DNA of 64,000 bases from an uncultured delta proteobacterium (GCA_963794325.1 CAWCDG010000004.1:928001-992000), one strand, 5' to 3'. Positions 22,480 through 44,153 are shown, counted from the stretch's first letter. Made by a program: numbers and translations. Notes: generated by a model not told the origin, from the letters alone.

Positions 22480-22516
22480 TGTGCAGTTTTCTTGATCGCG
22501 ATTGTAGCTTTCTACA

Positions 22517-22563
22517 CCGCGATTGTTCCCCTTCCCTCGAGGGAAGGGGTTAGGGGTTAGGTT
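22517..22563 (+). repeat. REP-like repeat family A, left copy
   Basis: CCGCGATTGTT-CCCCTTCCCTCGAGGGAAGGGG-TTAGGGGTTAGGTT (22-bp perfect palindrome + tail). Confidence 0.95.
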
Positions 22564-22938
22564 GCTATACTCGCTCGCAGCGCCTGCCTGATGCGCTCGA
22601 TCACTGCCTCGCTATCGAGCATCGCTTCGTTCGAGAATCGCAGGACGCGTACTCCTCTGTTCAAGATACTTTTGTCGCGCGATTCGTCGTACTGCCACTT
22701 CTCTTCATGCACAGTACCGTCCAACTCAATGGCCAGCTTGGCTGCGTCAATAGAAGTCGACGATAAATCCTTCTATTACCTGCTGACGGCGGAAGTGAAA
22801 CCCGTCGAGACCATTTTTCCGAAGGACCATCCAAAGGCCACGTTCGGCCGGAGTCATTTCGCTGCGCAATCGCTTCGCGCGGGCGAGTATGTCGGGCTCG
22901 ACGTTTTGGCCGCGTACAATTTTCCTGCTGCAAGCCAT
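22557..22938 (-). pseudogene. DUF559 / Vsr-like PD-(D/E)XK endonuclease; apparent 2-nt deletion near 22748 (may be a sequencing error)
   Basis: RAKRLRSEMTPAERGLWMVLR...HFRRQQVIEGFIVDFY then shifted DAAKLAIELDGTVH...YDESRD...GVRVLRFSN; about 127 aa restored. Confidence 0.85.
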
Positions 22939-22959
22939 CAGGTTCGCGGTTTGACCGAA

Positions 22960-23006
22960 AACCTAACCCCTAACCCCTTCCCTCGAGGGAAGGGGAACAA
23001 TCGCGG
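22960..23006 (-). repeat. REP-like repeat family A, right (inverted) copy
   Basis: AACCTAACCCCTAACCCCTTCCCTCGAGGGAAGGGGAACAATCGCGG. Confidence 0.95.
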
Positions 23007-28865: not shown

Positions 28866-28876
28866 TTTCTGTCTTT

Positions 28877-28958
28877 GGTTCCCCTTCCCGCTCGGGAAGA
28901 GGTTACTCCCAACAATCCGGTTCCCCTTCCCGCTCGGGAAGGGGTTAGGGGTTAGGTT
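28877..28958 (+). repeat. REP-like family A, tandem pair (truncated 28877-28905 + tailed 28919-28958)
   Basis: GGTTCCCCTTCCCGCTCGGGAAG(A/G)GGTTA; second copy retains GGGGTTAGGTT; between convergent genes. Confidence 0.9.
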
Positions 28959-28982
28959 CTTCGGCTACGGCGGAGTGCCGTC

Positions 28983-30266
28983 TCACGCGCTCCGCTTATC
29001 CTCCGGCGCCTCGACGCCCGCTTTCGCCGCAGACTCGACCACCGCCGATCTGAATATCCCATGCGCCATCGTCGATTCCTCGCGATCCGCACGCGCCGCG
29101 TAGATTCTCATCCGTGCCTCATGCGCCGACTTGTCATCCGGCGCAGCCGCGACAGCCCAATCCGCCAGGTGACACGCGAGCACAACATCGCCTGCCGCGA
29201 GTTTCTCATTCGCTCGTGCGATCACCGGCGCTATGCCTCCTGCGAGCGCCGCGATCTCCCGCGCCCGCTCGGCGTCAGTCGCCGGTTTCAAATTCGACGG
29301 CGTGCCGTCATACCATCCGCCTTCCAACCGCCAGATATTGCGCACGATAAATTCGGGCTCATCGTAAACCGCCTGCAGCCAGGGCTTCTCCGCGAGATTC
29401 GCCGGCGGCTTGACCGTATGAATTACCTCGTCCAGCGGCGCGCCAGCATTCATCAGCACGATCGTCTGATCGTACAAACTTTGTAGATAGTTCGCGGTGT
29501 CGTTCAGCACCTGCCGCACCCGGATCGCGCCGAACACCGGGTAACCATGTCCCGGCACGAGTACTTCCGCTCCCAGCCGCGCCATCAGGCGCAGCGCCTC
29601 GGCCCATTCGCGCGCATAGCGTTGCGCCTTCTGCGGATTACCGGCGTTGGGCGCCGCCCAGATGATCAAATCTCCCGTGCACAGCACCTTGCGCTGCGGG
29701 ATGAACACCCAGCAATGGTCGTCGGTCTCGCCGCGAGCATGATGGCATTCGAACTTGTCGTCGCCCGCAACTACATTCAACTGACTATCGAAGTAAGTAT
29801 CCGGATATACATACTCAGTCGGCCACGCCGCCGGCCGATTGAACTGCCGCGTATTGACTACCGTGTTATAGCCACCGGTCCGCTTGTAGCGATCGAACCG
29901 CGCCGCGACTGCGCGATGCCCTACGACGCGCGGCCGCGCCACCTTATTCTTCTGCGCGTCCGCGACTATCGCCGGCATCCCGCAAGCGTGATCGACATGC
30001 CCATGCGTATAGATCGCCGTGTTCACCCGTTCCGGCGAGAACTGCCGAATCAGTTTCACCGTCGCGTCCTGGTTGAAGTAGCCGCCGGTGTCGATCAGCA
30101 CCAGCCCCTCCCGCGTCTTGGCCGCGGTGACATTCGCAAACCAGCGGTAAAACATCACGCCGTCAGCAATTTCTTCGTACTCACCAGTCGGCAACAACGG
30201 ATGAAACTGCCGAGTAGTAATCGCGCCCGTAAAAATCTTCTCCGATTGATCTCTTATGACACCCAT
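28983..30266 (-). CDS. Alkyl/aryl-sulfatase-like MBL-fold hydrolase
   Basis: THGHVDH, GETDDH, PNAGNP, PGHG, GWYDGTPSNL dimerization region. Confidence 0.88.
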   Translation of the reverse strand: MGVIRDQSEKIFTGAITTRQFHPLLPTGEYEEIADGVMFYRWFANVTAAKTREGLVLIDTGGYFNQDATVKLIRQFSPERVNTAIYTHGHVDHACGMPAIVADAQKNKVARPRVVGHRAVAARFDRYKRTGGYNTVVNTRQFNRPAAWPTEYVYPDTYFDSQLNVVAGDDKFECHHARGETDDHCWVFIPQRKVLCTGDLIIWAAPNAGNPQKAQRYAREWAEALRLMARLGAEVLVPGHGYPVFGAIRVRQVLNDTANYLQSLYDQTIVLMNAGAPLDEVIHTVKPPANLAEKPWLQAVYDEPEFIVRNIWRLEGGWYDGTPSNLKPATDAERAREIAALAGGIAPVIARANEKLAAGDVVLACHLADWAVAAAPDDKSAHEARMRIYAARADREESTMAHGIFRSAVVESAAKAGVEAPEDKRSA

Positions 30267-30280
30267 GACCAGCGCTCTCT

Positions 30281-30327
30281 CCGCGATTGTTCCCCTTCCC
30301 TCGAGGGAAGGGGTTAGGGGTTAGGTT
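30281..30327 (+). repeat. REP-like family A, solo copy identical to 22517-22563
   Basis: 47/47 identity by eye. Confidence 0.95.
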
Positions 30328-31022
30328 CCGATCCGATGCAGCTCCCTGATATGCACGATCTTCTCGTGCTCGACCCACGAGTACCGCTGATGCTGATCGA
30401 TCAACCGCGCCTCGATTCCCGCTGCTCGCGCACCTTCGACATCGATCGAATAAATGTCGCCGGTAAATTTAACTTCGTCGGGACCGACCCCGAGCCGCTC
30501 GAGCGCGATACGAAAAATCCGCGGGTCAGGCTTCGCGACCCCGACGATGTGCGAGTCAATTATCACGTCGAAGTATTTCGCCAGCCCGAATCGCTTCGCA
30601 TCCGCTTCGACCTGTCCCTCTGCATTCGACACAATCGCGAGCTTGTAGCCCGCCGACTTGAACGCCTCGAGCGCCTCGACAATTCCCGGCCGCACGACCC
30701 GCCAAAGCGTCGCCTCGCGATGTATCGCGCCGAACCTTGTCGCGTGCTCCTGAAATTCCTCCTCAGGAATTCCTGCCGCCGTCATCCAGCCGCGAAAGAA
30801 AAGTTCGTATGCCGCCGCAGTGGCCTGGCGGTTCCCGGGGCTCATCAGATGTCGATCGATCGCCGCGCGCCCCGCGTATTCCGCATGCTCGAGCGCGAGC
30901 GCGTCGAGCTTCCTTCCCTCCCGCGAGAACTCGCGCGCCAGCAATTCGAAATCCAGGAACGCGAGCGTGCCGCCAAAGTCGAACAGCAGCGCCTTCAGTT
31001 TTTCCTTCTTCTTCGAGCTCAT
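30321..31022 (-). CDS. HAD family hydrolase
   Basis: FDFGGTL, VSN, KPDPRIF, GDIYSIDVEGA. Confidence 0.92.
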   Translation of the reverse strand: MSSKKKEKLKALLFDFGGTLAFLDFELLAREFSREGRKLDALALEHAEYAGRAAIDRHLMSPGNRQATAAAYELFFRGWMTAAGIPEEEFQEHATRFGAIHREATLWRVVRPGIVEALEAFKSAGYKLAIVSNAEGQVEADAKRFGLAKYFDVIIDSHIVGVAKPDPRIFRIALERLGVGPDEVKFTGDIYSIDVEGARAAGIEARLIDQHQRYSWVEHEKIVHIRELHRIGT

Positions 31023-31141
31023 TGGCGCTCCAGCTTAGCAGGGGAGCGCCGGTTCCTCCTCCTTAGTTGCATGGCAGCCAGTCAAAAAGATATGATTTTT
31101 CTGGAGATTTCCCGCCGCTTCGCAAAGTCCAAGGAGAAGTG

Positions 31142-31750
31142 ATGTTCACCGGTATCATCGAAGACCTCGGCACCGTCGACAGCCTCAAGCCGACCGACCA
31201 AGGCGCCGTGCTTTCGATCCACACCTCGCTTCCAACTTCCGAAATCACAATCGGCGACTCGATCACCGTCAACGGCGCGTGCCTGACGGTGATTTCCCGG
31301 AGCCCCGGCCGCTTCGCGATGGACGTATCCGCCGAGACCCTGCGATGCAGCAGCCTTGGCGATTTGAAACCCGGCAGCCGCGTCAATCTCGAGCGATGCC
31401 TGACGCTGGGCAAGTTGCTCGGCGGCCATCTCGTCTCCGGACACGTCGACGGCATCGGCCGCATCGTGTCGATCAAACCCGAGGGCGATTCGAAACTTTT
31501 CACGTTCGAGATTGCTCCCGCGCAGGCGCGCTACCTGGTCGAGAAGGGCTCGGTCGCGATCGACGGAATCAGCCTCACGATCTTTTCGATCAAGGACAAC
31601 AATTTTTCTGTCGAGCTGATTCCTCACACGCTGCGATCGACGACCCTCGGCTTCAAGCAGGTTGGCGACACCGTAAACATCGAAAACGACATGCTGGTCA
31701 AGTACGTCGAGAAAATTCTCACAATTCGCGCCGCAGCAACCCCCGCGTAG
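31142..31750 (+). CDS. ribE: Riboflavin synthase (alpha chain; ribC in E. coli nomenclature)
   Basis: MFTGII, GDSITVNGACLTV, GGHLVSGHVDG, KGSVAIDGISLT. Confidence 0.96.
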   Translation: MFTGIIEDLGTVDSLKPTDQGAVLSIHTSLPTSEITIGDSITVNGACLTVISRSPGRFAMDVSAETLRCSSLGDLKPGSRVNLERCLTLGKLLGGHLVSGHVDGIGRIVSIKPEGDSKLFTFEIAPAQARYLVEKGSVAIDGISLTIFSIKDNNFSVELIPHTLRSTTLGFKQVGDTVNIENDMLVKYVEKILTIRAAATPA

Positions 31751-31762
31751 ATACTGAAAAAA

Positions 31763-32236
31763 ATGAGCCTGATGCAGATACCGCGCAAGATCGAATACGC
31801 ACTGCGTGCGATGATCTATCTTGCCGACCATCCGGCGGGCGTGGCGCGCGGCACTGAAATAGCTACTCGCGAGCAAATCCCGAAGTACTATCTCGAAAAA
31901 GTCATTCGCGATCTGATGCGTCGCGGACTCGTTCACGCGCGTCGTGGTCCTGGCGGCGGATACCAACTCGCGCGCAAAGCCGACACCGTCACATTCCGCG
32001 ATATCATCGAGGCGGTCGAGGGACCGATCACGCTCAACGTATGCACCGACGGCAGCAGCTCGTGCGCCTTGCAGCCGACCTGCCGCATGTATCGCGTGTG
32101 GGAGAAGGGCCAGCGCGTCCTGCTCGAAGTGTTCTCCGATACCTCGCTCGCCGAGATAGCAGCTTCCCGTCCTGCGCCGCCCCTCTGTCCTCCCGACGCA
32201 CCCTCGATATCGCCCGCCAAGTCCCAGCCCGCGTAA
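31763..32236 (+). CDS. Rrf2 family regulator with three Cys (IscR/NsrR-like)
   Basis: EYALRAM, YLEKV, RGPGGGYQL, C-x6-C-x5-C. Confidence 0.9.
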   Translation: MSLMQIPRKIEYALRAMIYLADHPAGVARGTEIATREQIPKYYLEKVIRDLMRRGLVHARRGPGGGYQLARKADTVTFRDIIEAVEGPITLNVCTDGSSSCALQPTCRMYRVWEKGQRVLLEVFSDTSLAEIAASRPAPPLCPPDAPSISPAKSQPA

Positions 32237-32266
32237 CCGAATTGAAAACGTTCTCCGCGCTCCACA

Positions 32267-32312
32267 CGCGATTATTCCCCTTCCCTCAAGGGAAGGGGTC
32301 AGGGGTTAGGTT
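32267..32312 (+). repeat. REP-like family A, solo copy (3 substitutions)
   Basis: CGCGATTATTCCCCTTCCCTCAAGGGAAGGGGTCAGGGGTTAGGTT. Confidence 0.92.
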
Positions 32313-32345
32313 GCCCGGATTCCTCTCTTCTCCGGTCTTCTTCCC

Positions 32346-33527
32346 GTGACCAACATCGCACCCATCAACCTCGGCGACTTCAGCGACAAACCGCGACGCG
32401 GCGCCCCGGTCTTCACCGAGAAAACTTTCTACCTCGAGGAATTCTACGGCAAGAGTCTGCTCTTCGCGCTGATTCCTCCCGCTGGACAGCGCATCTCCGA
32501 TTTCGATTCTCTGGTCCTGACGCTCCGCGAATTACGCCGCAATCAAACGCGATGCGTCGTGATCGTCTCGCCGAGCGCGCTCCCAAAGCTGATGAGGCGG
32601 CTGGGTAAGCTCGCGCCGAAGGAAGCGCCGCCCGTTTTCAATCCATCCGAAGGATTGCGCTCGCGGCCCTATCCACCCGATTCGGCCGTCGCCGAGATCT
32701 GGGCGAGGCTTCGCGCCGGTTCGATCGTGGTCGCGTCGATGAGCCGTGACGACGCCGATGATCTCACCGTTTTCGCGCGCGAGCTCGCCAGTCGCCTTCG
32801 CGTCTTCAAGCTTCTGATGCTCGATCGCCGTGGCGGCTTGCTCGACAAAGACGGCAACCGGCTCTCATTCGTCGAGGAACGTCGCATCGACCGCACGATG
32901 CGCAATATCCGCTCGCGCCCTCGCAGAGCCATCGTGCGCGCCGCACTCGACGCACTCGAAGACGGCGTCGGCTCCGTCAATCTGGTCGCACCGAGCGACG
33001 TTTACGAAGAGCTCTTCAGTTTCATCGGCGCCGGCACACTGTTCACCGAGATGCAATACGGCTTTGTCCGGCCCGTCTCGATCGACGACTTCGAGGAAGT
33101 CGAGGCACTGATTGTGCGCGGTCAGAATGAAGGTCTCCTGCTGCCGCGCACTCCCGAACAGATCGCGCAGATCCTGCCCTCCTGCTACGGCTACCGAATC
33201 GGCGACGAACATCTCGCTGGAATCTGCTCGCTGCTGACCGAGCCCTACCGCCGCGACCGCGCCGGCGAGATCACCGCGATGTACACTTTGACGCGTTTTC
33301 AGGGTGAGGGCGTCGCCGCCGTGCTGGTCCGCGAGATCCTGAAGGAAGCCGAAGCGCGCCGCCTCAAATACGTGTTCGCATGCACCAGTGACGATCGGGT
33401 GGCCGGGCTCTTCTCGCGCCTCGGCTTCAATCGCGCAAGTGCTCGCGATGTCTCGCAAGCGAAGTGGCGCGGCTACGATTCCTCACGCATCGAGAGCCTG
33501 AGCATATTGCGTACCGACCTCGACTGA
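32346..33527 (+). CDS. ArgA-like amino-acid N-acetyltransferase (divergent kinase-like domain + GNAT)
   Basis: EELFSFIGAGTLF linker, GLLLPRT, FQGEGVA, LFSRLGF. Confidence 0.7.
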   Translation: MTNIAPINLGDFSDKPRRGAPVFTEKTFYLEEFYGKSLLFALIPPAGQRISDFDSLVLTLRELRRNQTRCVVIVSPSALPKLMRRLGKLAPKEAPPVFNPSEGLRSRPYPPDSAVAEIWARLRAGSIVVASMSRDDADDLTVFARELASRLRVFKLLMLDRRGGLLDKDGNRLSFVEERRIDRTMRNIRSRPRRAIVRAALDALEDGVGSVNLVAPSDVYEELFSFIGAGTLFTEMQYGFVRPVSIDDFEEVEALIVRGQNEGLLLPRTPEQIAQILPSCYGYRIGDEHLAGICSLLTEPYRRDRAGEITAMYTLTRFQGEGVAAVLVREILKEAEARRLKYVFACTSDDRVAGLFSRLGFNRASARDVSQAKWRGYDSSRIESLSILRTDLD

Positions 33528-33545
33528 CTATTCGACTGAGTATCG

Positions 33546-35177
33546 ATGCCTGCCAAACTCCCACCGGCCGCGGCCATCCTGGCGATCACTCTTGTCATCG
33601 CTGTCCTGACTCTTCATCGACTCGGCGCAGGCGACGTATGCACGGGCAACGAGGCCGTCGAAGGAGTTTTCGTCCAGCAGATGGTCGAGCATGGCCATCT
33701 ATTGTTCCCGGTCGAGAACGGCAATGTCCCGATGTTCAAGCCGCCGCTGTTCCACTGGACCGCGGTCGCGATCGATCGCCTCGCCGGATTCCGCAAGGTG
33801 ACCGCCGCAAATCTTCGTCTGCCCTCCGCTCTCTACGCAATCGCCGGCGCTCTTCTCACGATGGTCTTCGCGTACGAGATTCTCGGCTTCGACGTTGCGG
33901 TCCTCGCTGGACTTAGTCTCGCAGCGTCCTACCAGTACATCAGTCAAGGCCGTTTCGGCCGCGTCGATATGGCGCTGTGCTTCTTCGAGTCCCTCTCGCT
34001 GTTCGCTTTTCTGTGGTGGCTGCCCCGCGATGCGTCTGTGTCCGGTCGCGACGCGCGTTTCGAATCCAAGCTATCCGCGCTCTATCTCATGGCTGTCGCA
34101 CTCGGATTGGGCGTGTTAGCCAAGGGTCCAGTCGGCGCAATTCTTCCGGGCCTATCGATCCTCATTTTCATGTTCGTCGAGCGTCGTGGACGTCAAATTC
34201 TCGCGATGCTCGATCCCGGCGCGATCATCCTCGGCGCCGCGATCGCTTCGAGCTGGTATATTGCCTGCTACTTCGGCGGACGGTTCGCATTCCTGAATCG
34301 TCAGCTCGACACCGAAAACGTCGGCCGCTTCTTCGGCTCGCTGGGCGCGATGGCGCCGTGGTACTACCTGAAACCCGTCCTGCTCAACTCCGCCCCACTG
34401 AGCCTGCTCGTACCAGTCGCCGCCACTTACGCATTACTCAGTCCATTACTCAGTAGTCAATCCGGTGCTTCTGCATCCAATCCTACCTCTCCCCAAGGGG
34501 GAGGTCGCGTCGCCGAAAGCGACGCGGGAGGGGTCGCCAGCACCACCGCAAGGTCCGATTCCTCACGCACCCGCTCAGCCGTCCGCCTCTTCGCGATCCT
34601 CTACTTCGCGACCGTCATCTTCTTCAGCATCGCCGCCTATAAACGCCGCTCGTATCTGCTCCCCGTATGGCCCGCCGCCGCCGTGATTCTCGCGTGGTGG
34701 ATCGTCACCGTCCCCCGACCCGACTACCGCCGCGCCGCGAGCTGGACATTCGCCGCACTATGCGCCGGACTCGTCATTTTCAACTTCATCTATATACCGC
34801 GCGCGGAGATCCGCTCGTGCCGCGATGACTCATTCCGGCCCGCCGCCGAAGAGATCGCGCGCGTCGTCGCGCCCACCGACCCCCTCTATCTTTACGGATT
34901 TCACGAAGAGGTCGCGCCGCTCCTCTTCTATCTCGATCGAGACGCGCCCGTTATCGACGGCCGCCTGGGCGACGCGCCCCCCGGCTTCATCATCCTGCCT
35001 GCCCAAGTCTGGAAATCGCATCAGAACGAGGCGCTCGACTTCGAGCCCGTCCTCACCTCCGACCACGGCAGCCGCCACCTCGTGCTGATCAAGCGCGGCA
35101 AATCTTATGCGTCATTTCCGCTTCATTTCTTTGCCGGCCGCATGACCATCTTGTACCTTTCGCAATCAACCAGGTGA
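33546..35177 (+). CDS. ArnT/PMT (GT39/GT83-like) membrane glycosyltransferase
   Basis: KPPLFHW, RLPSAL, LAKGPVG, PWYYL, KRRSYLLP. Confidence 0.88.
   Translation: MPAKLPPAAAILAITLVIAVLTLHRLGAGDVCTGNEAVEGVFVQQMVEHGHLLFPVENGNVPMFKPPLFHWTAVAIDRLAGFRKVTAANLRLPSALYAIAGALLTMVFAYEILGFDVAVLAGLSLAASYQYISQGRFGRVDMALCFFESLSLFAFLWWLPRDASVSGRDARFESKLSALYLMAVALGLGVLAKGPVGAILPGLSILIFMFVERRGRQILAMLDPGAIILGAAIASSWYIACYFGGRFAFLNRQLDTENVGRFFGSLGAMAPWYYLKPVLLNSAPLSLLVPVAATYALLSPLLSSQSGASASNPTSPQGGGRVAESDAGGVASTTARSDSSRTRSAVRLFAILYFATVIFFSIAAYKRRSYLLPVWPAAAVILAWWIVTVPRPDYRRAASWTFAALCAGLVIFNFIYIPRAEIRSCRDDSFRPAAEEIARVVAPTDPLYLYGFHEEVAPLLFYLDRDAPVIDGRLGDAPPGFIILPAQVWKSHQNEALDFEPVLTSDHGSRHLVLIKRGKSYASFPLHFFAGRMTILYLSQSTR
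34485..34535 (+). repeat. REP-like double hairpin inside the glycosyltransferase CDS
   Basis: ACCTCTCCCCAAGGGGGAGGT + CGCGTCGC-CGAAA-GCGACGCG + GGAGGGG; same layout as 35725-35777. Confidence 0.6.
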
Positions 35178-35692
35178 TCGTTCACCATCCCGGTTGCCTG
35201 CATCATCGCGTAGCAGATTGTCGAACCCACGAACTTGAATCCGCGCCCGATCAATTCCTTGCTCATCGCATCCGACTCGATAGTGTGCGCGGGCACCTGC
35301 TTGAGCGCGCGCCATTTGTTGATCCGCGGCCGTCCATCGACGACTCGCCAGATGTATTCGTCGAAGGTGCGGAATTCTTTCTGCACGGCGAGGAAGGCTT
35401 TCGCATTACTGATAGTGGAATTGATCTTGAGTCGATTGCGAACGATCCCTTCGTTTGCCAGCAGTCGCGTAACGTCGCGATCTCCGAACTTCGCAACTCG
35501 CGCGGGATCGAATTCCTTGAAAGCCGTCCGATACGCGTGCCGCTTGCGCAAAATAGTGTCCCAGCTCAGCCCCGCCTGCGCTCCTTCGAGCGTGATGAAC
35601 TCGAACCACAGCCGATCGTCATGCACCGGCACGCCCCACTCTTCATCGTGGTAGCGAATCGCGAGTTCATTGCGGGCCCACGCACAACGCAT
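35123..35692 (-). CDS. tag: DNA-3-methyladenine glycosylase I
   Basis: RCAW, YHDEEWGVP, LEGAQAGLSW, IVRNRLKI, GFKFVG, NDHLVDC. Confidence 0.96.
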   Translation of the reverse strand: MRCAWARNELAIRYHDEEWGVPVHDDRLWFEFITLEGAQAGLSWDTILRKRHAYRTAFKEFDPARVAKFGDRDVTRLLANEGIVRNRLKINSTISNAKAFLAVQKEFRTFDEYIWRVVDGRPRINKWRALKQVPAHTIESDAMSKELIGRGFKFVGSTICYAMMQATGMVNDHLVDCERYKMVMRPAKK

Positions 35693-35724
35693 AGATGAAA
35701 CCTCAAGAGTGAGCTCCTGAATTG

Positions 35725-35874
35725 CCTCGCCCTTCGTGGGGAGCGGCCGACGCGAGACCTTGAGCGGCGGGTGAGGGACCGAATTTTCCGAGGTTCCGAA
35801 CGTGCGGCGCAACAGACAATCGCGCCGCACAGATGTCCCTCACCCTAACCCTCTCCCCTCGTGGGGCGAGGGAA
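35725..35874. repeat. Inverted pair of CCCTCTCCC-type REP-like elements (35725-35777 and 35837-35874)
   Basis: CCTCGCCCTTCGTGGGGAG...GGGTGAGGG facing CCCTCACCCTAACCCTCTCCCCTCGTGGGGCGAGGG. Confidence 0.75.
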
Positions 35875-35878
35875 CAGA

Positions 35879-37423
35879 CTACGCGCCTGCGGCGCTGCGC
35901 TGCACCGGCTCCTGCTCGGCTTTCTCCGCGGACTTCTCCGCGCATCGACGCTTCATCTCGGCAAACGCGTCGTCGACGAAGGCCTTCATCAGCGCAACAT
36001 CGGGCATCACGCGCGGATCAGCCATCATTCCGAAGTATAGATTCTTATAGTAACTGAGTATTGCGACTGCATACCCCATCGTCGCGCCGAGCGGCACCAG
36101 CGGTACCATGTCCAGGCACAGATGACCGTTGATGTACTGCGGCACTTGCACGCCGGGCACGTTGGTCGCGATAAAGTTTATTCCGAATGCGGGCAGCCCG
36201 AAGCCGTCGGGCCGCGGCTTCCAGTCGGTCCACTTCGCCATCCGTCCTGCGACGTCCATCATCGTGGTCGCCGCGCGTGCTGCCGGTCCGATCATGCTCG
36301 GCGGAATCGCGTCGCCTAACCCCATCAAGGATTCCAGAGCCTGCGCCGAGCCCGCAGCCTTAATTCGCTCGGTTTCCTCATGGATCAGTTTCAGCCGCTC
36401 GATAATATCCATCGGCGCCGCCGGCGCGGTCGGGAACATCATCGACACGCGATTTCCCAGCGAACTCTTTTCGCTCTTGTGCCGCACATTGACCGGGCAT
36501 CCGATGCACAGTTGCTGTCCCTCGACTTCGTACCCATGATGCTGCAAATAGCGCGCGGCGCCTTCGGTCAACATTGCCAGTACGACGTCGTTCACCGAAC
36601 CGCCGAACGCAGATCTGATAGCGCGGAAATCCGAAAAGGACTGACGCGTCCATGCCACGATGCGATCCTGGGTAACCGGCGTCGAGTTCCACGGCGTCGC
36701 GACGATTCGCCGCGTCGCGAGCTCGGTCATCACCCGCGATGCTTCCGCGAGCTGGCGCGCGCGCTCGGTCACTGACGCCGGATCCTCGATCGCTTCGACC
36801 ACCGTGTTGATCGTCGAGTTTACCGTGCTTTGAATCTGATCGCGCAACGCCTCCCCAAATCGCCGTATCAGGCTCGATGGGCGCGCTGCCACCCAAGGCG
36901 TGGGCGGCTGCGGGACATCGTCGGGCTCGGCGCGGAAGTCGTACATCACCTTAAGCAGCTCGACTCCCGACACGCCGTCGACCAGGCAGTGATGCACCTT
37001 CCACATCAGCGCAGTCCGATTTCCGTCCAGGTTGTGGAACGTATGCAGCTCCCACAGAGGGCGTTTTCGGTCGAGCGGCGTCTGGTAAACGCGCATCATT
37101 TCGGCCAGCGCGTCGCCTTCGCTCATCGAGTCGGGCAGCTCGTGGCGAAACACATGGTTGTCGACCGCAAATTCCGGGTCGTCCTCCATCACGGCGTGCG
37201 CGAGGTTAAGCGGAACTTCAGTGAGGCGCTGCCGATAGCGCGGGACCAGATGCATCCGCTCTTCGAAATGCCCGAGCAGCCCGTTGAAATCGACGCTGCC
37301 CTCGAACACTCCGATCGAACCAATATGCAGCGGACCGGTTTGCGATTCGCCGTAGATAAAAGTTGCGTCCTGCGTCGACAGCCGATAGCTGTCGGCCGAT
37401 GGAAATGTTGAATTGTCGGCCAT
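35879..37423 (-). CDS. Wax ester synthase/diacylglycerol acyltransferase (WS/DGAT)
   Basis: LDRKRPLWE, KVHHCLVDGVSG catalytic motif, SVNDVVL, LGNRVS, TNVPG. Confidence 0.94.
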   Translation of the reverse strand: MADNSTFPSADSYRLSTQDATFIYGESQTGPLHIGSIGVFEGSVDFNGLLGHFEERMHLVPRYRQRLTEVPLNLAHAVMEDDPEFAVDNHVFRHELPDSMSEGDALAEMMRVYQTPLDRKRPLWELHTFHNLDGNRTALMWKVHHCLVDGVSGVELLKVMYDFRAEPDDVPQPPTPWVAARPSSLIRRFGEALRDQIQSTVNSTINTVVEAIEDPASVTERARQLAEASRVMTELATRRIVATPWNSTPVTQDRIVAWTRQSFSDFRAIRSAFGGSVNDVVLAMLTEGAARYLQHHGYEVEGQQLCIGCPVNVRHKSEKSSLGNRVSMMFPTAPAAPMDIIERLKLIHEETERIKAAGSAQALESLMGLGDAIPPSMIGPAARAATTMMDVAGRMAKWTDWKPRPDGFGLPAFGINFIATNVPGVQVPQYINGHLCLDMVPLVPLGATMGYAVAILSYYKNLYFGMMADPRVMPDVALMKAFVDDAFAEMKRRCAEKSAEKAEQEPVQRSAAGA

Positions 37424-37692
37424 TCGAACTCACCTCCTGGCCGGATTTCCCTCTGGCTTGGGCCACGGCTTGGTGCCCCGTCCAAGCCGAGAAAATCCTG
37501 GAAATGACAAGTGCCGCAGACTCGGAAAGTTTGGCAGGCATGGTCGCCGAAGTGCAAGCTGATTTTTTGTCTTCTGCGGCGCTTGCTGAACCGCCCGCGC
37601 TGATCAAGGATAGCGCTCGCGCGAGGTTAAGTGCGCCTTACGAGTTTTCTCGACGGCAGCGCTTGCCCCTAGGAGTTTCGCCGGAGGTTTCA

Positions 37693-38274
37693 ATGACCGA
37701 GCAGATCAAGACTAATCGCCCTTATCCAATTCAGCTCAAATTGCACGACGGCCGCAGCGCCACGATTCGCGTGATGGAGCCCCGCGACCTCGACAAGATT
37801 GTTGATTTCGCCAAGGACCTGCCCTCCGACGACCTGCTCTTCCTCCGCACCGACATCACCGACCGCAACCAGGTCAAGACCTGGATTGAAAACATCAAGG
37901 CCGGTCACACCATCACGCTACTCGCCGAAATCGATGGCGAGCTGGCCGCCTACGCCAGCGTCCACCTCGATCAGGCACGATGGACACGGCGGGTCGGCGA
38001 AATACGGGTAATGACCTCGTCGCGCTATCGCGGCGCGGGACTCGGCCGGCGCCTCGTAGCTGAAGTATTCGATCTCGCGCGATCGCTCGGCCTCAAAAAG
38101 ATCACAGCGCAGATGACCACCGAACAGGCGGCCGCGCGCGCCGCATTCGAGCGCCTTGGTTTTCAAGTGGAAGCGATGCTCTCGGACTGGGTCGAGGACC
38201 GCCACGGCCGCTCCCGCGACCTGCTGATAATGACTTACGACGTAGCCGGCTTCTCCGACCACGTCGTCGCCTGA
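37693..38274 (+). CDS. GNAT family N-acetyltransferase
   Basis: GGAGG RBS; YRGAGLGRRL; FERLGF. Confidence 0.88.
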   Translation: MTEQIKTNRPYPIQLKLHDGRSATIRVMEPRDLDKIVDFAKDLPSDDLLFLRTDITDRNQVKTWIENIKAGHTITLLAEIDGELAAYASVHLDQARWTRRVGEIRVMTSSRYRGAGLGRRLVAEVFDLARSLGLKKITAQMTTEQAAARAAFERLGFQVEAMLSDWVEDRHGRSRDLLIMTYDVAGFSDHVVA

Positions 38275-38275
38275 T

Positions 38276-39331
38276 TTAGATTCCGGGCGCGAGCGCCTGC
38301 GTCACCACCAATATCCTGAACGTCCCCGCAACCGGCACCGGGCGCGGATGCTCCGCGTTCGACCCCGGCGGAAACGTCAAGTCCGCCGTCGGCAGATAAA
38401 TCAGCGTGCCAGTCGGATCGAGCGCCATCGTCCGCGCACCCAGTTGCGTTTGCACCACCTGCGCGAGTTCGTACTTGTCCATAGACACCTCGCGAATGAT
38501 CGTCAACGTCCCGTCGCCGCAACTCGCGAACACCAGGCCGTCGCGGAATGCGGTCGCGTCGACGAATGCGCCGATGGGAAAATCGGCCACGATCTTTCCA
38601 TCGTCGGCGTTCATCACCATCAGCTTCTTATTTCGACATCCGATGAACAGCCGCCGCGTCGCGCGATCCATCGACATCCCGGTCGGCCTGCTGCCCGGCG
38701 CCGTCGGCCATCGCGCGATGACCTTCATCTGCTTCGTATCGACGACCGCGACCTCGTCCTTGTCCGCGATATTGACGTAGACCTTGCCCTGCTCGTCAGC
38801 GACCGCGAATTCCGGTGACCCGCCCAAATCCACCGTCGCTGCCGGCTTGCCGCCGTTCGGATTCACTTCGGGCGCAATCGCGACCAGCTGATGGGCATCG
38901 CCGCACATCACCAGCACGCGATTGCTGGAGCGGTCATAGATGATACCGTCGGCGTCATCGGCCGCCGGCACCTTGCCGAGCACCGCGTGAGTTTTCAGAT
39001 CGAAGATCAGCACCGAGCCGCTGCCGCCATCGCTGATAAATCCGCGCCCCACGTCCGGCACAATCGCCACGCCGTGAGATCTTTTCTGTCCGCCGATATC
39101 GGCGACGACCTTTCCGGTCGACGCCTCGATTATCATCGTATGAGTCACACGGGTTACGTATAGGTCTCCCGAATGGAGCGTCGCGTAGTCCCATCCACCG
39201 TCGCCGCCAACCTTGAAGGTCGCGGTCAATTTGTAGTTGGGCGTTCCCGACTCCGCCAGCGCATATCCGGATGCGCTCAAAGCAAGGACCAAAATCGAGA
39301 AACCAAAGAGCCAGGTAAAATAATTCTTCAT
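38276..39331 (-). CDS. YncE-family exported beta-propeller protein
   Basis: Signal peptide; GGDGGWDY, HGVA, DADGIIYD, PEFAVAD, GARTMALD. Confidence 0.85.
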   Translation of the reverse strand: MKNYFTWLFGFSILVLALSASGYALAESGTPNYKLTATFKVGGDGGWDYATLHSGDLYVTRVTHTMIIEASTGKVVADIGGQKRSHGVAIVPDVGRGFISDGGSGSVLIFDLKTHAVLGKVPAADDADGIIYDRSSNRVLVMCGDAHQLVAIAPEVNPNGGKPAATVDLGGSPEFAVADEQGKVYVNIADKDEVAVVDTKQMKVIARWPTAPGSRPTGMSMDRATRRLFIGCRNKKLMVMNADDGKIVADFPIGAFVDATAFRDGLVFASCGDGTLTIIREVSMDKYELAQVVQTQLGARTMALDPTGTLIYLPTADLTFPPGSNAEHPRPVPVAGTFRILVVTQALAPGI

Positions 39332-39699
39332 ATTTTTTTCTTAATGCCGGGTGCAGGGATCACCCGAGCAAACGATCCATCAACCTCGCACGGCAACTCG
39401 ATCACCTGCACCACCGCATCGACGTTCAATTCCCCGTACAGATGAGGAAACAACTCACCACTCGATTCGCCATGGTTCATTTTGGGCGCCTCATACCTCA
39501 ATTCCGCCGTCAACCGCGATTCATCGACACATAGCACGACCAGGTCATCTTGCCCGCGATAGAACCTGTTAGCAGTACCGATCAGCTGCGCGCTAGTTGA
39601 GCAATGAATAAATCCCTCATCCCTCAGACTGGCCGGCGCATAGGTCCCGTGCGCGACCGCGAGCATCCATTCACTGCGCTTGACGATATGGCAGATCAC
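39328..39699 (-). CDS. DUF952 family protein
   Basis: SLRDEGFIHCST, FPHLYGELN. Confidence 0.9.
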   Translation of the reverse strand: MICHIVKRSEWMLAVAHGTYAPASLRDEGFIHCSTSAQLIGTANRFYRGQDDLVVLCVDESRLTAELRYEAPKMNHGESSGELFPHLYGELNVDAVVQVIELPCEVDGSFARVIPAPGIKKKI

Positions 39700-39756
39700 G
39701 TCTTGGTCGGCGCGTGCTGGTGCACCTGGTATTAGGACGTCGGCTCGTTTCTGAAG

Positions 39757-40455
39757 TTACGCCAGATCGAAGAACAGCACTTCGGCGGGGGCGTCAGCGA
39801 CGATCGTCAGTTTCTCTTCGTCGCTGATTGCGGCGCCGTCGCCTTCTGCGAGGGCAGTGCCGTTAACGGTGACCGCGCCGCGCGCGACTTGCACCCATCC
39901 GTGACGGCCCTTCTTGAGATTCGTCGCGACGGTCTGTCCGCGCTCGAGCTTTGCGACCGACAGCGCCGCGTCCTGATGAATTTTCACAGACTGATCGCGG
40001 CCGTCGGTAGTTCCTACCGGCGCGAAGCCGCCGTGCGCTTTCTTGTCGTCGATAGTTTTCTGCTCATAACCGGGCGCGATGCCGGCCGCGGCAGGGACGA
40101 TCCAGATTTGCAGAAAATGAACCGGCTCGGTTTTCGAATGATTGAATTCGCTGTGCGTGATTCCGGTGCCGGCGCTCATCCGCTGCGCTTCGCCGGGACG
40201 AATCACCGATCCAGTGCCGAGGCTGTCCTTATGCTCGAGCGCGCCTTCCAGAATGTAGGTGATGATCTCCATGTCGCGATGCGGATGCGTGGGGAAACCC
40301 GCTCCCGGGCGAACGCGATCCTCGTTGATGACGCGCAGCGTGCGAAATCCCATCTCGGCCGGATCGTAGTAGTCGCCGAACGAGAACGAGTGGCGGCTGT
40401 CGAGCCAGTCGATTTTCGTGCGTCCACGGTCAGCCGACTTGCGTGGAGTAATCAT
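39757..40455 (-). CDS. Pirin family protein (YhhW-like)
   Basis: WLDSRHSFSF, HPHRDMEIITY, MSAGTGITHSE, LQIW. Confidence 0.95.
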   Translation of the reverse strand: MITPRKSADRGRTKIDWLDSRHSFSFGDYYDPAEMGFRTLRVINEDRVRPGAGFPTHPHRDMEIITYILEGALEHKDSLGTGSVIRPGEAQRMSAGTGITHSEFNHSKTEPVHFLQIWIVPAAAGIAPGYEQKTIDDKKAHGGFAPVGTTDGRDQSVKIHQDAALSVAKLERGQTVATNLKKGRHGWVQVARGAVTVNGTALAEGDGAAISDEEKLTIVADAPAEVLFFDLA

Positions 40456-40465
40456 GGTAGCCTCC

Positions 40466-41725
40466 TCAGGCTGCTTTGGCGGCCGGCTTCATCTTGAGGC
40501 GAATCGGCATGTGCTTGATCCCTCCGACGAAGCTCGAGCGCAGCCGCTCCACCGGACCCGCAGACTCGACGTGATCGAGACGCTTGGCCAGCTCACTGAA
40601 AATTATCTTCAGCTCCAGCCGCGCCAGGTTCGCGCCGAGGCAGAAATGCTCGCCGATGCCGAATGCGATATGCGGATTCGGATCGCGGCTGATGTCGAAC
40701 TTGAAAGGATCGTTGAAAACTTCTTCGTCGCGATTCCCCGACGGGTAGAACAGGCATACCGATTCGCCGGCTTTGATCTTCTGCCCGCGAACGACGGTAT
40801 CTTCGGTCGCGGTCCGCGCGAACTGGATGACCGGCGTCGTCCATCGCACGATCTCTTCGACTGCCGAGTCAATCAACTCGGGATGCCGTTTCAGCTTCTG
40901 CCATTCGCCCGGATTGTCGATGAAAGCCTGCAAGCCGCCGGTAGTTGCGTTACGGGTCGTCTCATTGCCCGCTACCACCAGCAAAAAGTAGTACGACAGC
41001 ATCTCGAACTGCGGGATCGGCTGGCCGTTCACCTTGCCGTTGGCGACGATACTGGTGATGTCGTTGGTCGGATGCTTCATCCGCTCGGCCACCATCTCGC
41101 TGAAATACTGGAACAGGCCGAGCCGCGAGCGATCCATCGTCTCCTGCGCGCTGGTACCCGCCTGAAACTCGGGGTCGCCGCCGCCGATCGTCTCGTTGGT
41201 CCATCGGAAGAGCTGCTCCCAATCCTTGTGCGGGACGCCGAGCAGTTCCGCGATGACGGCGAGCGGAATCTTCGACGACACGTCGGTCACGAAATCGCAT
41301 ACGTCGCGGCCGGTCACGTCGTCGAGCACCTCGCGCGTGATGTTCTCGATTTCGGGCCCGAGCGGACTTACTCCGCGCGGCGTGAAGTGGCGATTGACGA
41401 CGTTGCGATATTCACCGTGGTCGGGCGGATCCATGTCGAGCAGATGGCGGAACGGCGGCGTCGGACTCTCCTGGAACCCTTCTTCCTGGACGAAGATGAG
41501 CAGGCGGGGACCGTTGAGGAACAGCCGCGGCTGCTTCGAGATCGCGATAATGTCGGCGTGCTTGGTGATCGCCCAGAATGGATCGGTCTTAGGATGCTCG
41601 CACCAGAAAACCGGTTTGTGCTCGCGCAAGTAGGTCCACTCGCGATGCGGGTAGCCGCTTTTCATGTAGTGGTCGGGACCGATGATGTTTAACGACTCGA
41701 GTGAAAGGGCCTGTTCAGATTCCAT
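40466..41725 (-). CDS. Cytochrome P450
   Basis: MDPPDH, AGNETT, EEIVR, FGIGEHFCLG. Confidence 0.96.
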   Translation of the reverse strand: MESEQALSLESLNIIGPDHYMKSGYPHREWTYLREHKPVFWCEHPKTDPFWAITKHADIIAISKQPRLFLNGPRLLIFVQEEGFQESPTPPFRHLLDMDPPDHGEYRNVVNRHFTPRGVSPLGPEIENITREVLDDVTGRDVCDFVTDVSSKIPLAVIAELLGVPHKDWEQLFRWTNETIGGGDPEFQAGTSAQETMDRSRLGLFQYFSEMVAERMKHPTNDITSIVANGKVNGQPIPQFEMLSYYFLLVVAGNETTRNATTGGLQAFIDNPGEWQKLKRHPELIDSAVEEIVRWTTPVIQFARTATEDTVVRGQKIKAGESVCLFYPSGNRDEEVFNDPFKFDISRDPNPHIAFGIGEHFCLGANLARLELKIIFSELAKRLDHVESAGPVERLRSSFVGGIKHMPIRLKMKPAAKAA

Positions 41726-41798
41726 TGAAAGTGTCTCCGCGAGTTCGCGAGTTCTGTTTCGACTTCGCAATTCTGACCTTTCGCGCGCAATGAGTCAT

Positions 41799-41993
41799 CT
41801 AGTCATCGGTGACCGTGATGGCCTGGCGGGGGCATAGGCGCGCGGCCAGCTTGAGCTTGTCGCGCATGCGTTCGGGCGGATTGTCGATCAGCAGGTGGCT
41901 CTTGTCGTCGTCGCGCACCTCGAAAACTTCCGGCGCGGCCTCCTGGCATTTCATATTTCCCTCGCACAGCTTCTGATCGACAACAACCTTCAT
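41799..41993 (-). CDS. [3Fe-4S]-type ferredoxin, P450 partner
   Basis: CEGNMKC...APEVF...CPRQAI; GAGGAG RBS. Confidence 0.9.
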   Translation of the reverse strand: MKVVVDQKLCEGNMKCQEAAPEVFEVRDDDKSHLLIDNPPERMRDKLKLAARLCPRQAITVTDD

Positions 41994-42317
41994 CTGACTA
42001 ATCTCCTCTTCCTTTCGCCGCGCAAAAATGCGGCCCGAAAAAAGCGATCATATAAGAGGATAGTTCTTGCGACTAGAAGCGCGAATCCGCCCTGAAAGTA
42101 ATCCGGGATGCACCGGCGACAGAGGTGCTAGGGACGGACATCTTGATATCATTTTGTGTGGTGAAGATGACTGAAAGATAGCAAAATAAGGAATTAGCTG
42201 CCCTCATTGTGCTTTAGGGAACGTTGGTTATAACCCGAATACTTGCGCAGTGACAGTCTTTCCTGCGATACCGAACGGTATGTTGGTTCGCTCGAATCGC
42301 AGCCCGGAGGATCAGCC

Positions 42318-43994
42318 ATGTCATACGATCTGATTATCAAAAATGGAACGGTGATCGACGGTACCGGCGCCTTTCGACGACGCGCCGATGTCGCCGTCAA
42401 GGACGGAAAGGTCGCGGAAATCGGCAAAGTCACCGACGGCGCCGCCGAAACGATCGATGCGTCCGACCTGATCGTCTCGCCCGGCTTCGTCGATCCACAT
42501 ACTCACTACGATGCGCAGATCTGTTGGGATCCTCTAGTCAGTTGCACCTCGTGGCACGGCGTTACGACCGTCGTCATGGGAAATTGCGGAGTGGGTATTG
42601 CTCCTTGCAAGCCCGCGGCGCGCGAAGTGGCGGCGTGGGACCTCGTCAACGTCGAGGCGATCCCGTTCGAGGCGCTGTCGAAAGGAATCTCGTGGGAATG
42701 GGAAAGCTTTCCGGAATTTCTCGGGGCGGCGGAGCGGCGCGGCGCGGGAATCAATCTCGCGTTCCTGGCGCCGCTGACTCCGTTTCGGCACTACGTGCTC
42801 GGCGATGAGTCGATGGAGCGGGAGGCGACCCCCGATGAGACGGTGCGGGTCGCCGGGCTTTTGCGCGAGGCTGTCGATGCGGGTGCGTTCGGATTTTCCA
42901 CCACCACGCTGCCGCAGCATATCGGCTACCAGGGACGTCCGCTCGCTTGCCGCCTCGCGTCAACTGACGAGCTGAAGGCCTATGCCAACGTGCTGCGCGA
43001 CGCCGGTCGCGGCGCGATCGAAGTGGCGCTCACCCGGCGCGCGGGCCGTATGTCCGAGGACGAAGAAGGACTCCTGGAATTTCTTCTCGACGAGAGCATG
43101 CGCCCGGTCACTTGGCTCGCGATGGCGAGCCGCCCCGACAAGCCCGAGGCCAGTGCCGACACTCTCAGAAGGCTCGAGCCGCTAATCAAACGCGGCGGCG
43201 TCCCGCAGGTGCTGTGCAAGCCGTTCGTGGTGCAGATGGATCTGCGCAATCCGTTCTCCTTCGCCGACATGGAGCTGTGGGGACCAGTCTTCAATCAGCC
43301 GCTCGAGAAGCAGAAACAGTTCTACCGCGACACGGCGTTTCGTGGCGCGTTTCGCGAGGAGCTCAAGCGGCCACATCTGTTCCAGGGCAAATGGAATCGG
43401 GTCGAGGTGCTCGAGGTCGCGAGTCACGCACTGAAACAGTACGAGCGCAAGTCGGTTGGCGAAATCGCCGAGATGCGCCACGAGGATCCGCTCGACACGT
43501 TCTTCAATCTCGCACTCGAAGACGATCTGAACATCCAGTACACGATGCAGCAGTATCACGAGGAAGGAATTCAGCGGCTGATTGCGGACCCGCGCACTAT
43601 GATCGGGCTGTCCGACGGCGGCGCGCACGTGAATATGCTGTGCGACGCGGGCTACTGCACGTACCTGCTCGGCACGTGGGTGCGCGAGCGCCAGGCGATG
43701 ACCCTGGAGAATGCAATCAAGCGAATCACGTCGGAGCCCGCCGATTTCTTCGGAATCAAGGATCGCGGACGGCTCAAGGTCGGGATGCCGGCTGACGTCG
43801 CAATCTTCGACGAACGCAAAATCGGCTCAGCCAAGCGCGCGCGCATGCAAAACGACCTGCCCGGCGGCGGCCGCAGACTCGTGATGCCGGCGGAGGGCGT
43901 CGAATACACAATCGTAAACGGCGACGTCCTCTACGAACACGGTCACCATTCCGGCTACCTCCCAGGCCAGGTGCTGAGATCCGGTGCGCAGTAG
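42318..43994 (+). CDS. N-acyl-D-amino-acid deacylase family amidohydrolase
   Basis: [37 protein letters not shown]. Confidence 0.92.
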
Positions 43995-44029
43995 TCCGGC
44001 CAGTCAACAAGGGGCGGCGTCCCACTCTT

Positions 44030-44074
44030 GCGATTGTTCCCCTTCCCTCGAGGGAAGGGGTTAGGGGTTAGGTT
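44030..44074 (+). repeat. REP-like family A, solo copy
   Basis: 45/45 identity to 22519-22563. Confidence 0.95.
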
Positions 44075-44153
44075 ATCTTGAATAGCCTGAATCTCGGACC
44101 ACGAAGTACGTGCATCGTTCCCTCCCTTATTTTTTCTGTCATGCTCATGATCG

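Follow-up and report, generated by a model that had tools for sequence, protein, structure and literature searches.

The question raised by this locus is where the short hairpin repeats between its genes come from. In a 64,000-nucleotide stretch of DNA from an uncultured delta proteobacterium (GCA_963794325.1, CAWCDG010000004.1:928001-992000; "the window" below means this whole stretch), a DUF559 gene is bounded by two inverted copies of a repeat, and five further copies without a gene (solos) lie between positions 28877 and 44074. An initial annotation, made from the sequence alone, read the solos as products of recent proliferation with selection on hairpin structure. We compared them with the DUF559 cassette, with the rest of the genome (G000, an assembly of 4.45 Mb in 10 contigs, which are given C numbers, 85% complete) and with related genomes; other G and L codes denote compared species and loci. 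Genes were called with a crude caller of our own (3703 genes, 84% coding). We concluded that nothing sets the solos apart from the other copies of their repeat family, which is lineage-specific and mobile on an evolutionary scale, and that they are the same unit as the ends of the DUF559 cassette.

Solo copies and the genome-wide repeat family

The window was searched for CCCCTTCCC-N4-GGGAAGGGG with up to two mismatches, with 100 shuffles as control. Seven matches were found (22528, 22974, 28881, 28923, 30292, 32277, and 44039) and none was expected from the shuffles; two of them bound the DUF559 gene at 22517-23006 and five fall in the 28877-44074 range. Motif search and gene calls agree with the annotation that all five solos lie between genes and carry the G-rich sequence TTAGGGGTTAGGTT 3' of the hairpin on the + strand (TCAGGGG... 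at 32299). The loops, in order GCTC, GCTC, TCGA, TCAA, and TCGA, and the single arm mismatch at 28881 are also as annotated. Two solos had been called identical to the left repeat of the cassette: this holds for the solo at 30281 (47/47 nt), but the solo at 44029 matches over 45 nt, with T in place of C as its outermost flank base. The copy at 28877, described as truncated, is actually the proximal unit of a tandem dimer. Feature coordinates are collected in Table 1.

For the genome-wide count, loops of 4-5 nt were allowed, and 209 full modules (98 on the + strand, 111 on the - strand) plus 25 tail-less units were found; a strict hairpin search, run separately, gave 201 hairpins. The tail-less units carry the linker TTACTCCCAACAATCCGGTT, and the dimer arrangement seen at 28877 occurs about 25 times in the genome; dimers with a 20-nt gap were found at at least 13 places. 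A module is about 46 nt long and consists of a short 5' flank, a 9-4-9 hairpin, and then TTAGGGGTTAGGTT. Conservation drops to background at about -10 and about +36 from the hairpin start, and soil metagenome contigs (contigs, not reads, compared with likeness set to 90) break at the same edges; in the window they terminate at 28914-28916 and 28958/28963, the edges of the distal dimer unit. The centre of the hairpin, annotated as variable, does differ between copies, but as discrete subfamilies: type A has the flank CGCGATTGTT and the loop TCGA (50 such loops), and type B has the flank TCCGGTT and the loops GCTC (66), ACTAT (48), GCGC (13), or GTTC (6). At gathering thresholds, no Rfam family matched window positions 20000-46000.

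Six full modules lie in one 21.6-kb part of the window; random placement gave a maximum of at least six in 40% of 500 trials, and local clustering was rejected as an unusual feature. One soil metagenome contig (one run, from a different study) skips 32247-32317, and 42-nt joints at which contigs go back on themselves suggest a variable number of tandem units. With repeats present in many copies and a likeness setting of 90, neither can be assigned to this locus.

Most modules are intergenic: 190 of the 209 lie outside called genes, and of the 19 placed inside one by the crude caller, the 15 that are listed lie 15-289 nt from the gene end. Spacers between convergent genes hold 66 modules (33 expected) and those between divergent genes 21 (45 expected; p 9e-11). 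In co-directional spacers, 66 modules are closer to the upstream stop codon and 37 closer to the downstream start; the median distance to a stop codon is 48 nt. The annotation had judged the orientation bias of the window copies (6 of 7) too small a sample to be significant, and this caution was well placed, the genome-wide ratio of 98:111 being balanced. Orientation showed no bias with respect to transcription (33 co-oriented, 37 opposed) and no clustering into runs (71 switches, 70.3 expected). On contig C4, where the cumulative GC-skew minimum is at 1,046,722 and dnaA at 1,080,787, orientation was not linked to the replichore (16:18 before the minimum, 10:19 after; p=0.44). A local association of orientation with GC skew at 10 kb (p 0.0003) faded at 25-50 kb, and nothing was left of it once the two sides of the skew minimum near dnaA were compared; we treat it as not established. 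A scan for target-site duplications of k=2-4 over all boundary pairs gave a best excess of 11 versus 3.7, at implausible boundaries, and a target-site duplication was rejected.

Several side observations concern the family at large. At C4:92987 and C9:30360 there are tail-less hybrid hairpins in which one flank is of type B and the opposite one is an inverted type A flank; their sequence matches the expected product of a deletion between two inverted modules, which may be their origin. The motif CGCGATTGT forms the outer flank of type A modules; it also occurs without a module beside cassettes and in the inner-hairpin loop of the arms of other DUF559 cassette families (L096, L097, L050). The remaining places noted for it are window 22496-22504, L106, L112, and C5:71641. 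It may be a recognition site or a footprint. With CGCGATTGTT considered as a target motif that could stand free of the module, 15 orphan intergenic copies were counted, compared with 3.2 for permuted 9-mers (maximum 12), a control that ignores codon usage.

The DUF559 cassette and the design of its ends

The cassette measures about 490 bp and consists of a DUF559 gene between two inverted modules with their tails inward. The genome has eight DUF559 matches at seven loci. The intact relative at C1:5795-6181 matches the PF04480 profile with E 9.6e-34 and 116 bits (cut-off 20.6), the two pieces of the window gene with 52.2 and 36 bits. It is 77% identical in DNA to the window cassette, and the homology stops exactly at both hairpins. 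Sixteen loci in 15 species whose product is 69% or more identical to the C1 protein were examined, and every one has inverted modules with tails inward at its ends, as do five further cassettes at the window's own site. Seventeen cassettes are spread over at least 10 non-orthologous sites, some of them common to several species; the site of the window cassette is common to six species and empty in 20 of 25 others. The loop types found in the cassettes of a species also occur among its solos. The cassette protein matches the PDB entry 3hrl (E 1.3e-14) and the homing endonuclease entry 3r3p (E 8.5e-5). For the cassette gene, dN/dS had a median of 0.12 and a range of 0.05-0.24 (11 intact genes, 53 pairs, many of them synonymously saturated), and the gene is thus under purifying selection.

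Compared at the window site (L102, L103, L105, L106, and L112), the cassette interior is inverted in three of six species (G053, G042, and G009, versus G000, G055, and G044), which points to inversion between the 47-nt inverted ends. In a survey of genes lying between inverting inverted repeats, "DUF559 domain-containing protein" was enriched with an odds ratio of 14.3 (Milman et al., 2023; PMC9881135). The inverted interior seen here is consistent with that listing as inversion-prone; the passage of the survey on DUF559 gives no account of the repeats, of dispersed copies, or of a mobile cassette. A literature search covering journals outside subscription found no paper that links DUF559 to these repeats.

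The other DUF559 genes of the genome have different flanking inverted repeats of 28-125 nt; these repeats, and those around distant DUF559 genes elsewhere in the genus, are other modules built to one design. Four loci (C5:214801-215350, C6:9131-9692, C4:388899-389532, and C9:156495-157104) have repeats of their own, of 72-125 nt or 28+13 nt, composed of an outer hairpin and a mirror G-rich segment, in some cases with a second hairpin between the two; dispersed gene-less copies of these repeats number 16, 16, about 29, and 11, respectively. A second solo family (CCCCCTTTCC ... GGAAAGGGGG ... GGGGGATAGG; for example at C3:112511, C4:1059718, C6:31059, and C8:18878) has no DUF559 cassette in the G000 assembly and flanks DUF559 genes in G051, G003, G052, G005, and G054. 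At C3:232369-234453 a stop-free frame of 694 codons takes in a DUF559 gene (C3:232648) and, immediately downstream of it, a PP-loop gene (SGGADS, tilS-like). The locus proved to be a cassette with no stop codon between it and the PP-loop gene; a fusion protein was considered and not adopted.

The module opens with a short flank, either CGCGATTGTT or TCCGGTT. Next come the hairpin, made of a pyrimidine arm and a purine arm of 9 nt each around a loop of 4-5 nt, then TTA, and finally a G-rich tail, also of 9 nt. Read against the purine arm under the purine-motif rules (G.GC and A/T.AT triads), this tail is its mirror image at 8 of 9 triads (about 5.9 for shuffled tails). In the cassette arms of this genome and 24 other species, 8/9, 9/9, 10/11, or 8/8 mirror triads fit, against about 6 when shuffled, and the mirror fit was never worse than a direct-repeat reading. 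In at least eight arm types (8-9), differences in the purine arm are matched by mirror-order differences in the tail. The strand order, with pyrimidine arm, purine arm, and a reverse-Hoogsteen strand at the 3' side, is that of the class II purine motif as defined by Holder et al. (2015; PMC4666352), and the sizes fall within the class II ranges: stems of 9 nt (6-15 allowed), loops of 4-5 and 3 nt (1-6 allowed), and one mismatched triad. ViennaRNA predicts the Watson-Crick hairpin alone, with the tail left free; the DNA energy is -10.1 kcal/mol and the z scores lie between -2.1 and -3.2. A G-quadruplex from the four G runs would be an alternative to the triplex.

This design resembles that of BoxC/PIT/TM_ECO repeats. 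As described for TM_ECO in Holder et al. (2015; PMC4666352), a C-rich stem of 9 nt, a loop of 3-6 nt, a G-rich stem of 9 nt, a 3-nt loop (TTA or CCG), and a G-rich third strand of 9 nt follow one another, and the elements are class II, often with one mismatched triad. The likeness extends to the order of pyrimidine arm, loop, purine arm, 3-nt loop (TTA as in TM_ECO type A) and mirror G-rich strand, to loops less conserved than the 9-nt stems, to intergenic placement without strand bias and with occasional inverted pairs, and to copy numbers that differ strongly between close relatives at sites unstable between strains, so far as these traits are set out in that paper. The differences are that the module does not fit the published TM_ECO pattern (CCCTCNCCC N3-6 GGGNGAGGG N3 GGGNGAGGG), its arms being CCCCTTCCC / GGGAAGGGG / GGGGTTAGG; that its host belongs to a different phylum-level lineage; that it has 209 copies here versus 23 in K-12; and that it bounds a DUF559 cassette, whereas the published work on BoxC/PIT/TM repeats found no link to a mobile element or enzyme. 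Judged from sequence, the module shares the triplex-type design of these repeats without belonging to the TM_ECO sequence family; the triplex itself is a prediction.

A DUF559 cassette in another species of the genus (G002) fits the TM_ECO pattern exactly. In E. coli K-12 (NC_000913.3, L099; 8206-8240 and 8325-8466), the DUF559 gene ycjD is followed, 167 bp past its 3' end, by an exact TM_ECO pattern. A duplicated fragment of the ycjD 3' end stands between the two, and the tail of the pattern is directed away from ycjD, opposite to the arrangement in this genus. Two other classes were considered for the module and rejected. An intrinsic terminator would need a T run, and what comes after the hairpin is TTAGGGGTTAGGTT or, with the unit read from its opposite end, AACAATCGCG or AACCGG. 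A miniature inverted-repeat transposable element (MITE) does not fit a solo that is one module without bounding terminal inverted repeats and shows no 2-4-nt duplication above chance.

Distribution among species and decay of orthologous copies

We surveyed 40 other species of the genus with up to two mismatches; the module was present in 32, and copy numbers ranged between 0 and 138. Among 58 genomes from 29 other genera of the family, 10 (7 genera) have 1-10 copies in which arms and tail are exact and the loops differ; no copy was found in 16 genomes of other families of the class. Synteny around the solos, at 80-88% identity throughout the genus, allowed orthologous spacers to be compared at four sites (the unpublished G024 left out; Table 1). 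Presence varies among species at all four, and one intergenic site can be occupied by different subfamilies or families in different species. At site 1, G021 and G042 have a monomer, against the dimer in G000. With 209 modules genome-wide and variable presence at orthologous sites, the copies are neither confined to the window nor fixed in distant relatives, and the proliferation proposed at the outset is supported.

At site 2, L032 (G012) has the type A flank CCGCGATTGTT without hairpin or tail, which may be the remnant of a module loss. At site 4, a decay series runs from a 648-nt DUF559 cassette with TM_ECO-like ends in G056 (L050) through a collapsed inverted pair in G053 (L049) to four other species (L035, L036, L045, and L055) in which the two outer arms have come to form one palindrome.

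The selection on hairpin structure proposed for the solos has to be revised. Six solos of other species that are orthologous at site 3 had 13 mismatches in 162 arm and tail positions (pyrimidine arm 1/54, purine arm 5/54, tail 7/54); one of the six is of type B and part of a trimer, an effect confined to the flank and loop counts, which it raises. Five of 54 stem pairs were changed and none of the five still pairs, so individual solos decay without compensation. The constraint is seen at the cassette ends: 33 of them had 4 mismatches in 924 arm and tail positions (pyrimidine arm 0/264, purine arm 1/264, tail 3/396), at a dS of about 1 for the gene they enclose, and one further end has a tail deletion. 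Because cassette ends are nearly invariant and the site 3 solos have changed, the module is held constant at the gene boundary and drifts when alone; the uniformity of solos within a genome therefore reflects recent copying and not selection at each site.

Table 1. Modules, cassette parts, and orthologous spacers, in window coordinates
Feature	Position	Strand	Description
Cassette left end, type A module, tail inward	22517..22563	+	47-nt perfect inverted repeat
DUF559 (Vsr-fold nuclease) gene	22557..22938	-	Frameshifted into 22747-22938 and 22557-22724; PF04480, E 6.5e-14 and 6.9e-9
Cassette right end, inverted type A module copy	22960..23006	-	47-nt perfect inverted repeat
Proximal unit of tandem dimer	28877..28922	+	GGTT, hairpin 28881-28902 (CCCCTTCCC GCTC GGGAAGAGG, one arm mismatch), linker TTACTCCCAACAATCCGGTT replacing the G-rich tail; dimer 28877-28958 between the AnmK gene and a metallo-beta-lactamase-fold sulfatase-like gene, in a 117-nt spacer separating two convergent genes
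Distal full dimer module, type B, loop GCTC	28923..28958	+	Hairpin 28923-28944, tail TTAGGGGTTAGGTT 28945-28958
Type A solo, flank CCGCGATTGTT, loop TCGA	30281..30327	+	Equal to cassette left end over 47 nt; between the metallo-beta-lactamase-fold sulfatase-like gene and a HAD hydrolase gene; tail overlaps the HAD-hydrolase stop codon (30321-30323, - strand gene)
Type A solo variant, flank CGCGATTATT, loop TCAA, second loop TCA	32267..32312	+	Between the Rrf2 regulator and GNAT genes
Type A solo, flank TGCGATTGTT, loop TCGA	44029..44074	+	Between an amidohydrolase gene, 35 nt past its stop codon, and a gene of unknown product
Orthologous site 1	28866-28982		21 loci compared; module family in 4, various other sequences elsewhere
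Orthologous site 2	30267-30320		27 loci; module intact in 5, degenerate in 4; only a 12-29-nt spacer in 16; other families in 1; flank only in 1
Orthologous site 3	32237-32345		24 loci; module family in 6, another triplex-type family in 4, empty 43-47-nt spacer in 14
Orthologous site 4	43995-44153		14 loci with both anchors; module family in 2; elsewhere other palindromes, triplex-type families, one whole DUF559 cassette (G056), and a collapsed inverted pair (G053)

Origin of the solos

On balance we lean towards reading the solos as non-autonomous, gene-less single-end copies of the module of a selfish cassette, spread with the presumed help of the DUF559 nuclease. In a single-stranded module the two arms would pair as a hairpin, and the G-rich tail would fold back along the purine arm as a third strand, giving a class II intrastrand triplex. 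The DUF559 nuclease would recognise and nick the folded module, and host replication or repair would then copy the module, occasionally the whole cassette, into gene-free DNA. New copies would go mostly just behind genes, without target duplication; an inserted solo would bring no benefit to the host and would then decay. Folding in the cell, cleavage by the DUF559 protein, and the route of copying are steps that we infer. Copy number goes some way with the cassette: the 14 other species with an orthologous cassette all have 13-138 copies, and all 19 species with at most nine copies are without one. The reading also draws on the size and spread of the family, on placement and variable presence such as an inserted element would show, on the pairing of module and cassette, which recurs in the other DUF559 families, on the constraint seen in the gene and the cassette ends, on the nuclease fold of the protein, and on the TM_ECO pattern near ycjD.

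A number of points weigh against this reading. Most copies are single modules, and we know of no transposition chemistry for single modules. Seven species have 21-73 copies and no orthologous cassette was found in them (G001, G003, G013, G020, G023, G049, and G056), four of these assemblies being only 63-87% complete and G003 keeping a broken fragment. Perfect copies make up a median of ~0.65 in species with a cassette and ~0.53 in those without, a slight difference, and because the species are relatives, the counts of copies and cassettes are not independent and do not amount to a formal test. The DUF559 gene of the window's own cassette is frameshifted, and the cassettes are old and mostly inherited vertically, the window site being common to six species. 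An ordinary 148-codon gene at C6:141900-142468 is bracketed by inverted solos too, so that flanking by chance is possible. Target duplications were detected at none of the boundary pairs tried, and no filled and empty pair close enough for reading a junction was obtained. As reported for TM_ECO in PMC4666352, a single strand formed a triplex in vitro, with no footprint in vivo.

The association might run the other way, the repeats having spread by some other means and a homing-type DUF559 gene targeting repeats already in place, so that the solos would be targets and not products. Such a history would fit the excess of solos over cassettes (209 modules versus two cassettes of the family in the genome), the seven species with many solos and no cassette found, the intergenic sites repeatedly hit by different families, and the relation of the cassette protein to the homing endonuclease entry 3r3p. 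How the repeats spread would still need an explanation, however. Among adjacent pairs of modules no gene-less inverted pair with inward tails, which an empty homing site should look like, was seen for this family, the only such pairs being those that enclose genes, and the two arms of a cassette usually carry one loop variant, as expected of mutual copies and not of two independent solos. We regard this explanation as unlikely. Vsr-fold homing endonucleases (I-Bth0305I type; 3r3p, "mobile intron protein") are like the cassette protein in sequence (E 8.5e-5) and in being small nucleases of selfish elements; they differ in that the cassette here has no intron or intein context, stands free between structured inverted repeats, and is accompanied by hundreds of gene-less end copies.

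Lower still we place the idea that the modules are host elements kept by selection, for example as 3' RNA hairpins that stabilise or end transcripts or bind a host protein, and that the cassette borrowed them. The enrichment behind genes, at a median of 48 nt from the stop codon, and a palindromic stem that would form in RNA in either orientation (-10.1 kcal/mol as DNA) speak for it, but presence varies among species at every site checked, congeners have 0-138 copies, and changes in the stems of orthologous copies go uncompensated as they decay. A G-rich tail, not a T run, comes after the hairpin, Rfam gave no match, and PIT elements had no promoter or terminator activity, as cited in PMC4666352; we judge a host role quite improbable. 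Classical repetitive extragenic palindromic (REP) elements moved by a REP-associated tyrosine transposase (RAYT) come to mind with 209 short extragenic palindromes, 190 of them outside called genes, in a genome that has two Y1_Tnp (PF01797) genes (C4:286748-287293 and C4:486313-486816). No such hairpin lies within 1.5 kb of either gene, though, the repeats flank DUF559 genes and not a Y1 transposase, and the one-sided G-rich tail is lacking in REPs, all of which makes this origin very improbable. The likeness to REP/REPIN and RAYT systems is one of layout, with hundreds of short structured extragenic repeats and a single-copy enzyme gene between inverted copies. The enzyme here is a Vsr-fold (PD-(D/E)XK-type) nuclease and not an HUH tyrosine transposase, the unit is a hairpin with a mirror tail, and the copies are mostly singlets or tandem dimers and not inverted doublets.

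To our knowledge, BoxC/PIT/TM repeats, catalogued in thousands of genomes since the 1990s, have no known origin, function, or enzyme. We tentatively suggest, as a possibility of slightly less than even odds, that DUF559 (Vsr-fold) nucleases are their missing partner enzymes, that together they make up a widespread class of selfish elements, and that the window solos are its miniature copies. If true, a nuclease gene between two folded DNA ends, with hundreds of single-end copies, would be a parallel of the REP/RAYT system with another enzyme and a three-stranded signal. On the practical side, metagenome assemblies are interrupted at the well-defined edges of the repeats, whose presence also flags intergenic sites that are unstable. 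The genus is a clean natural data set, with graded copy number (0-169), a cassette in 15 species, and sister families with arm-tail covariation, and it therefore offers a hypothesis that can be tested at the bench: that a Vsr-fold nuclease may act on a folded DNA end.

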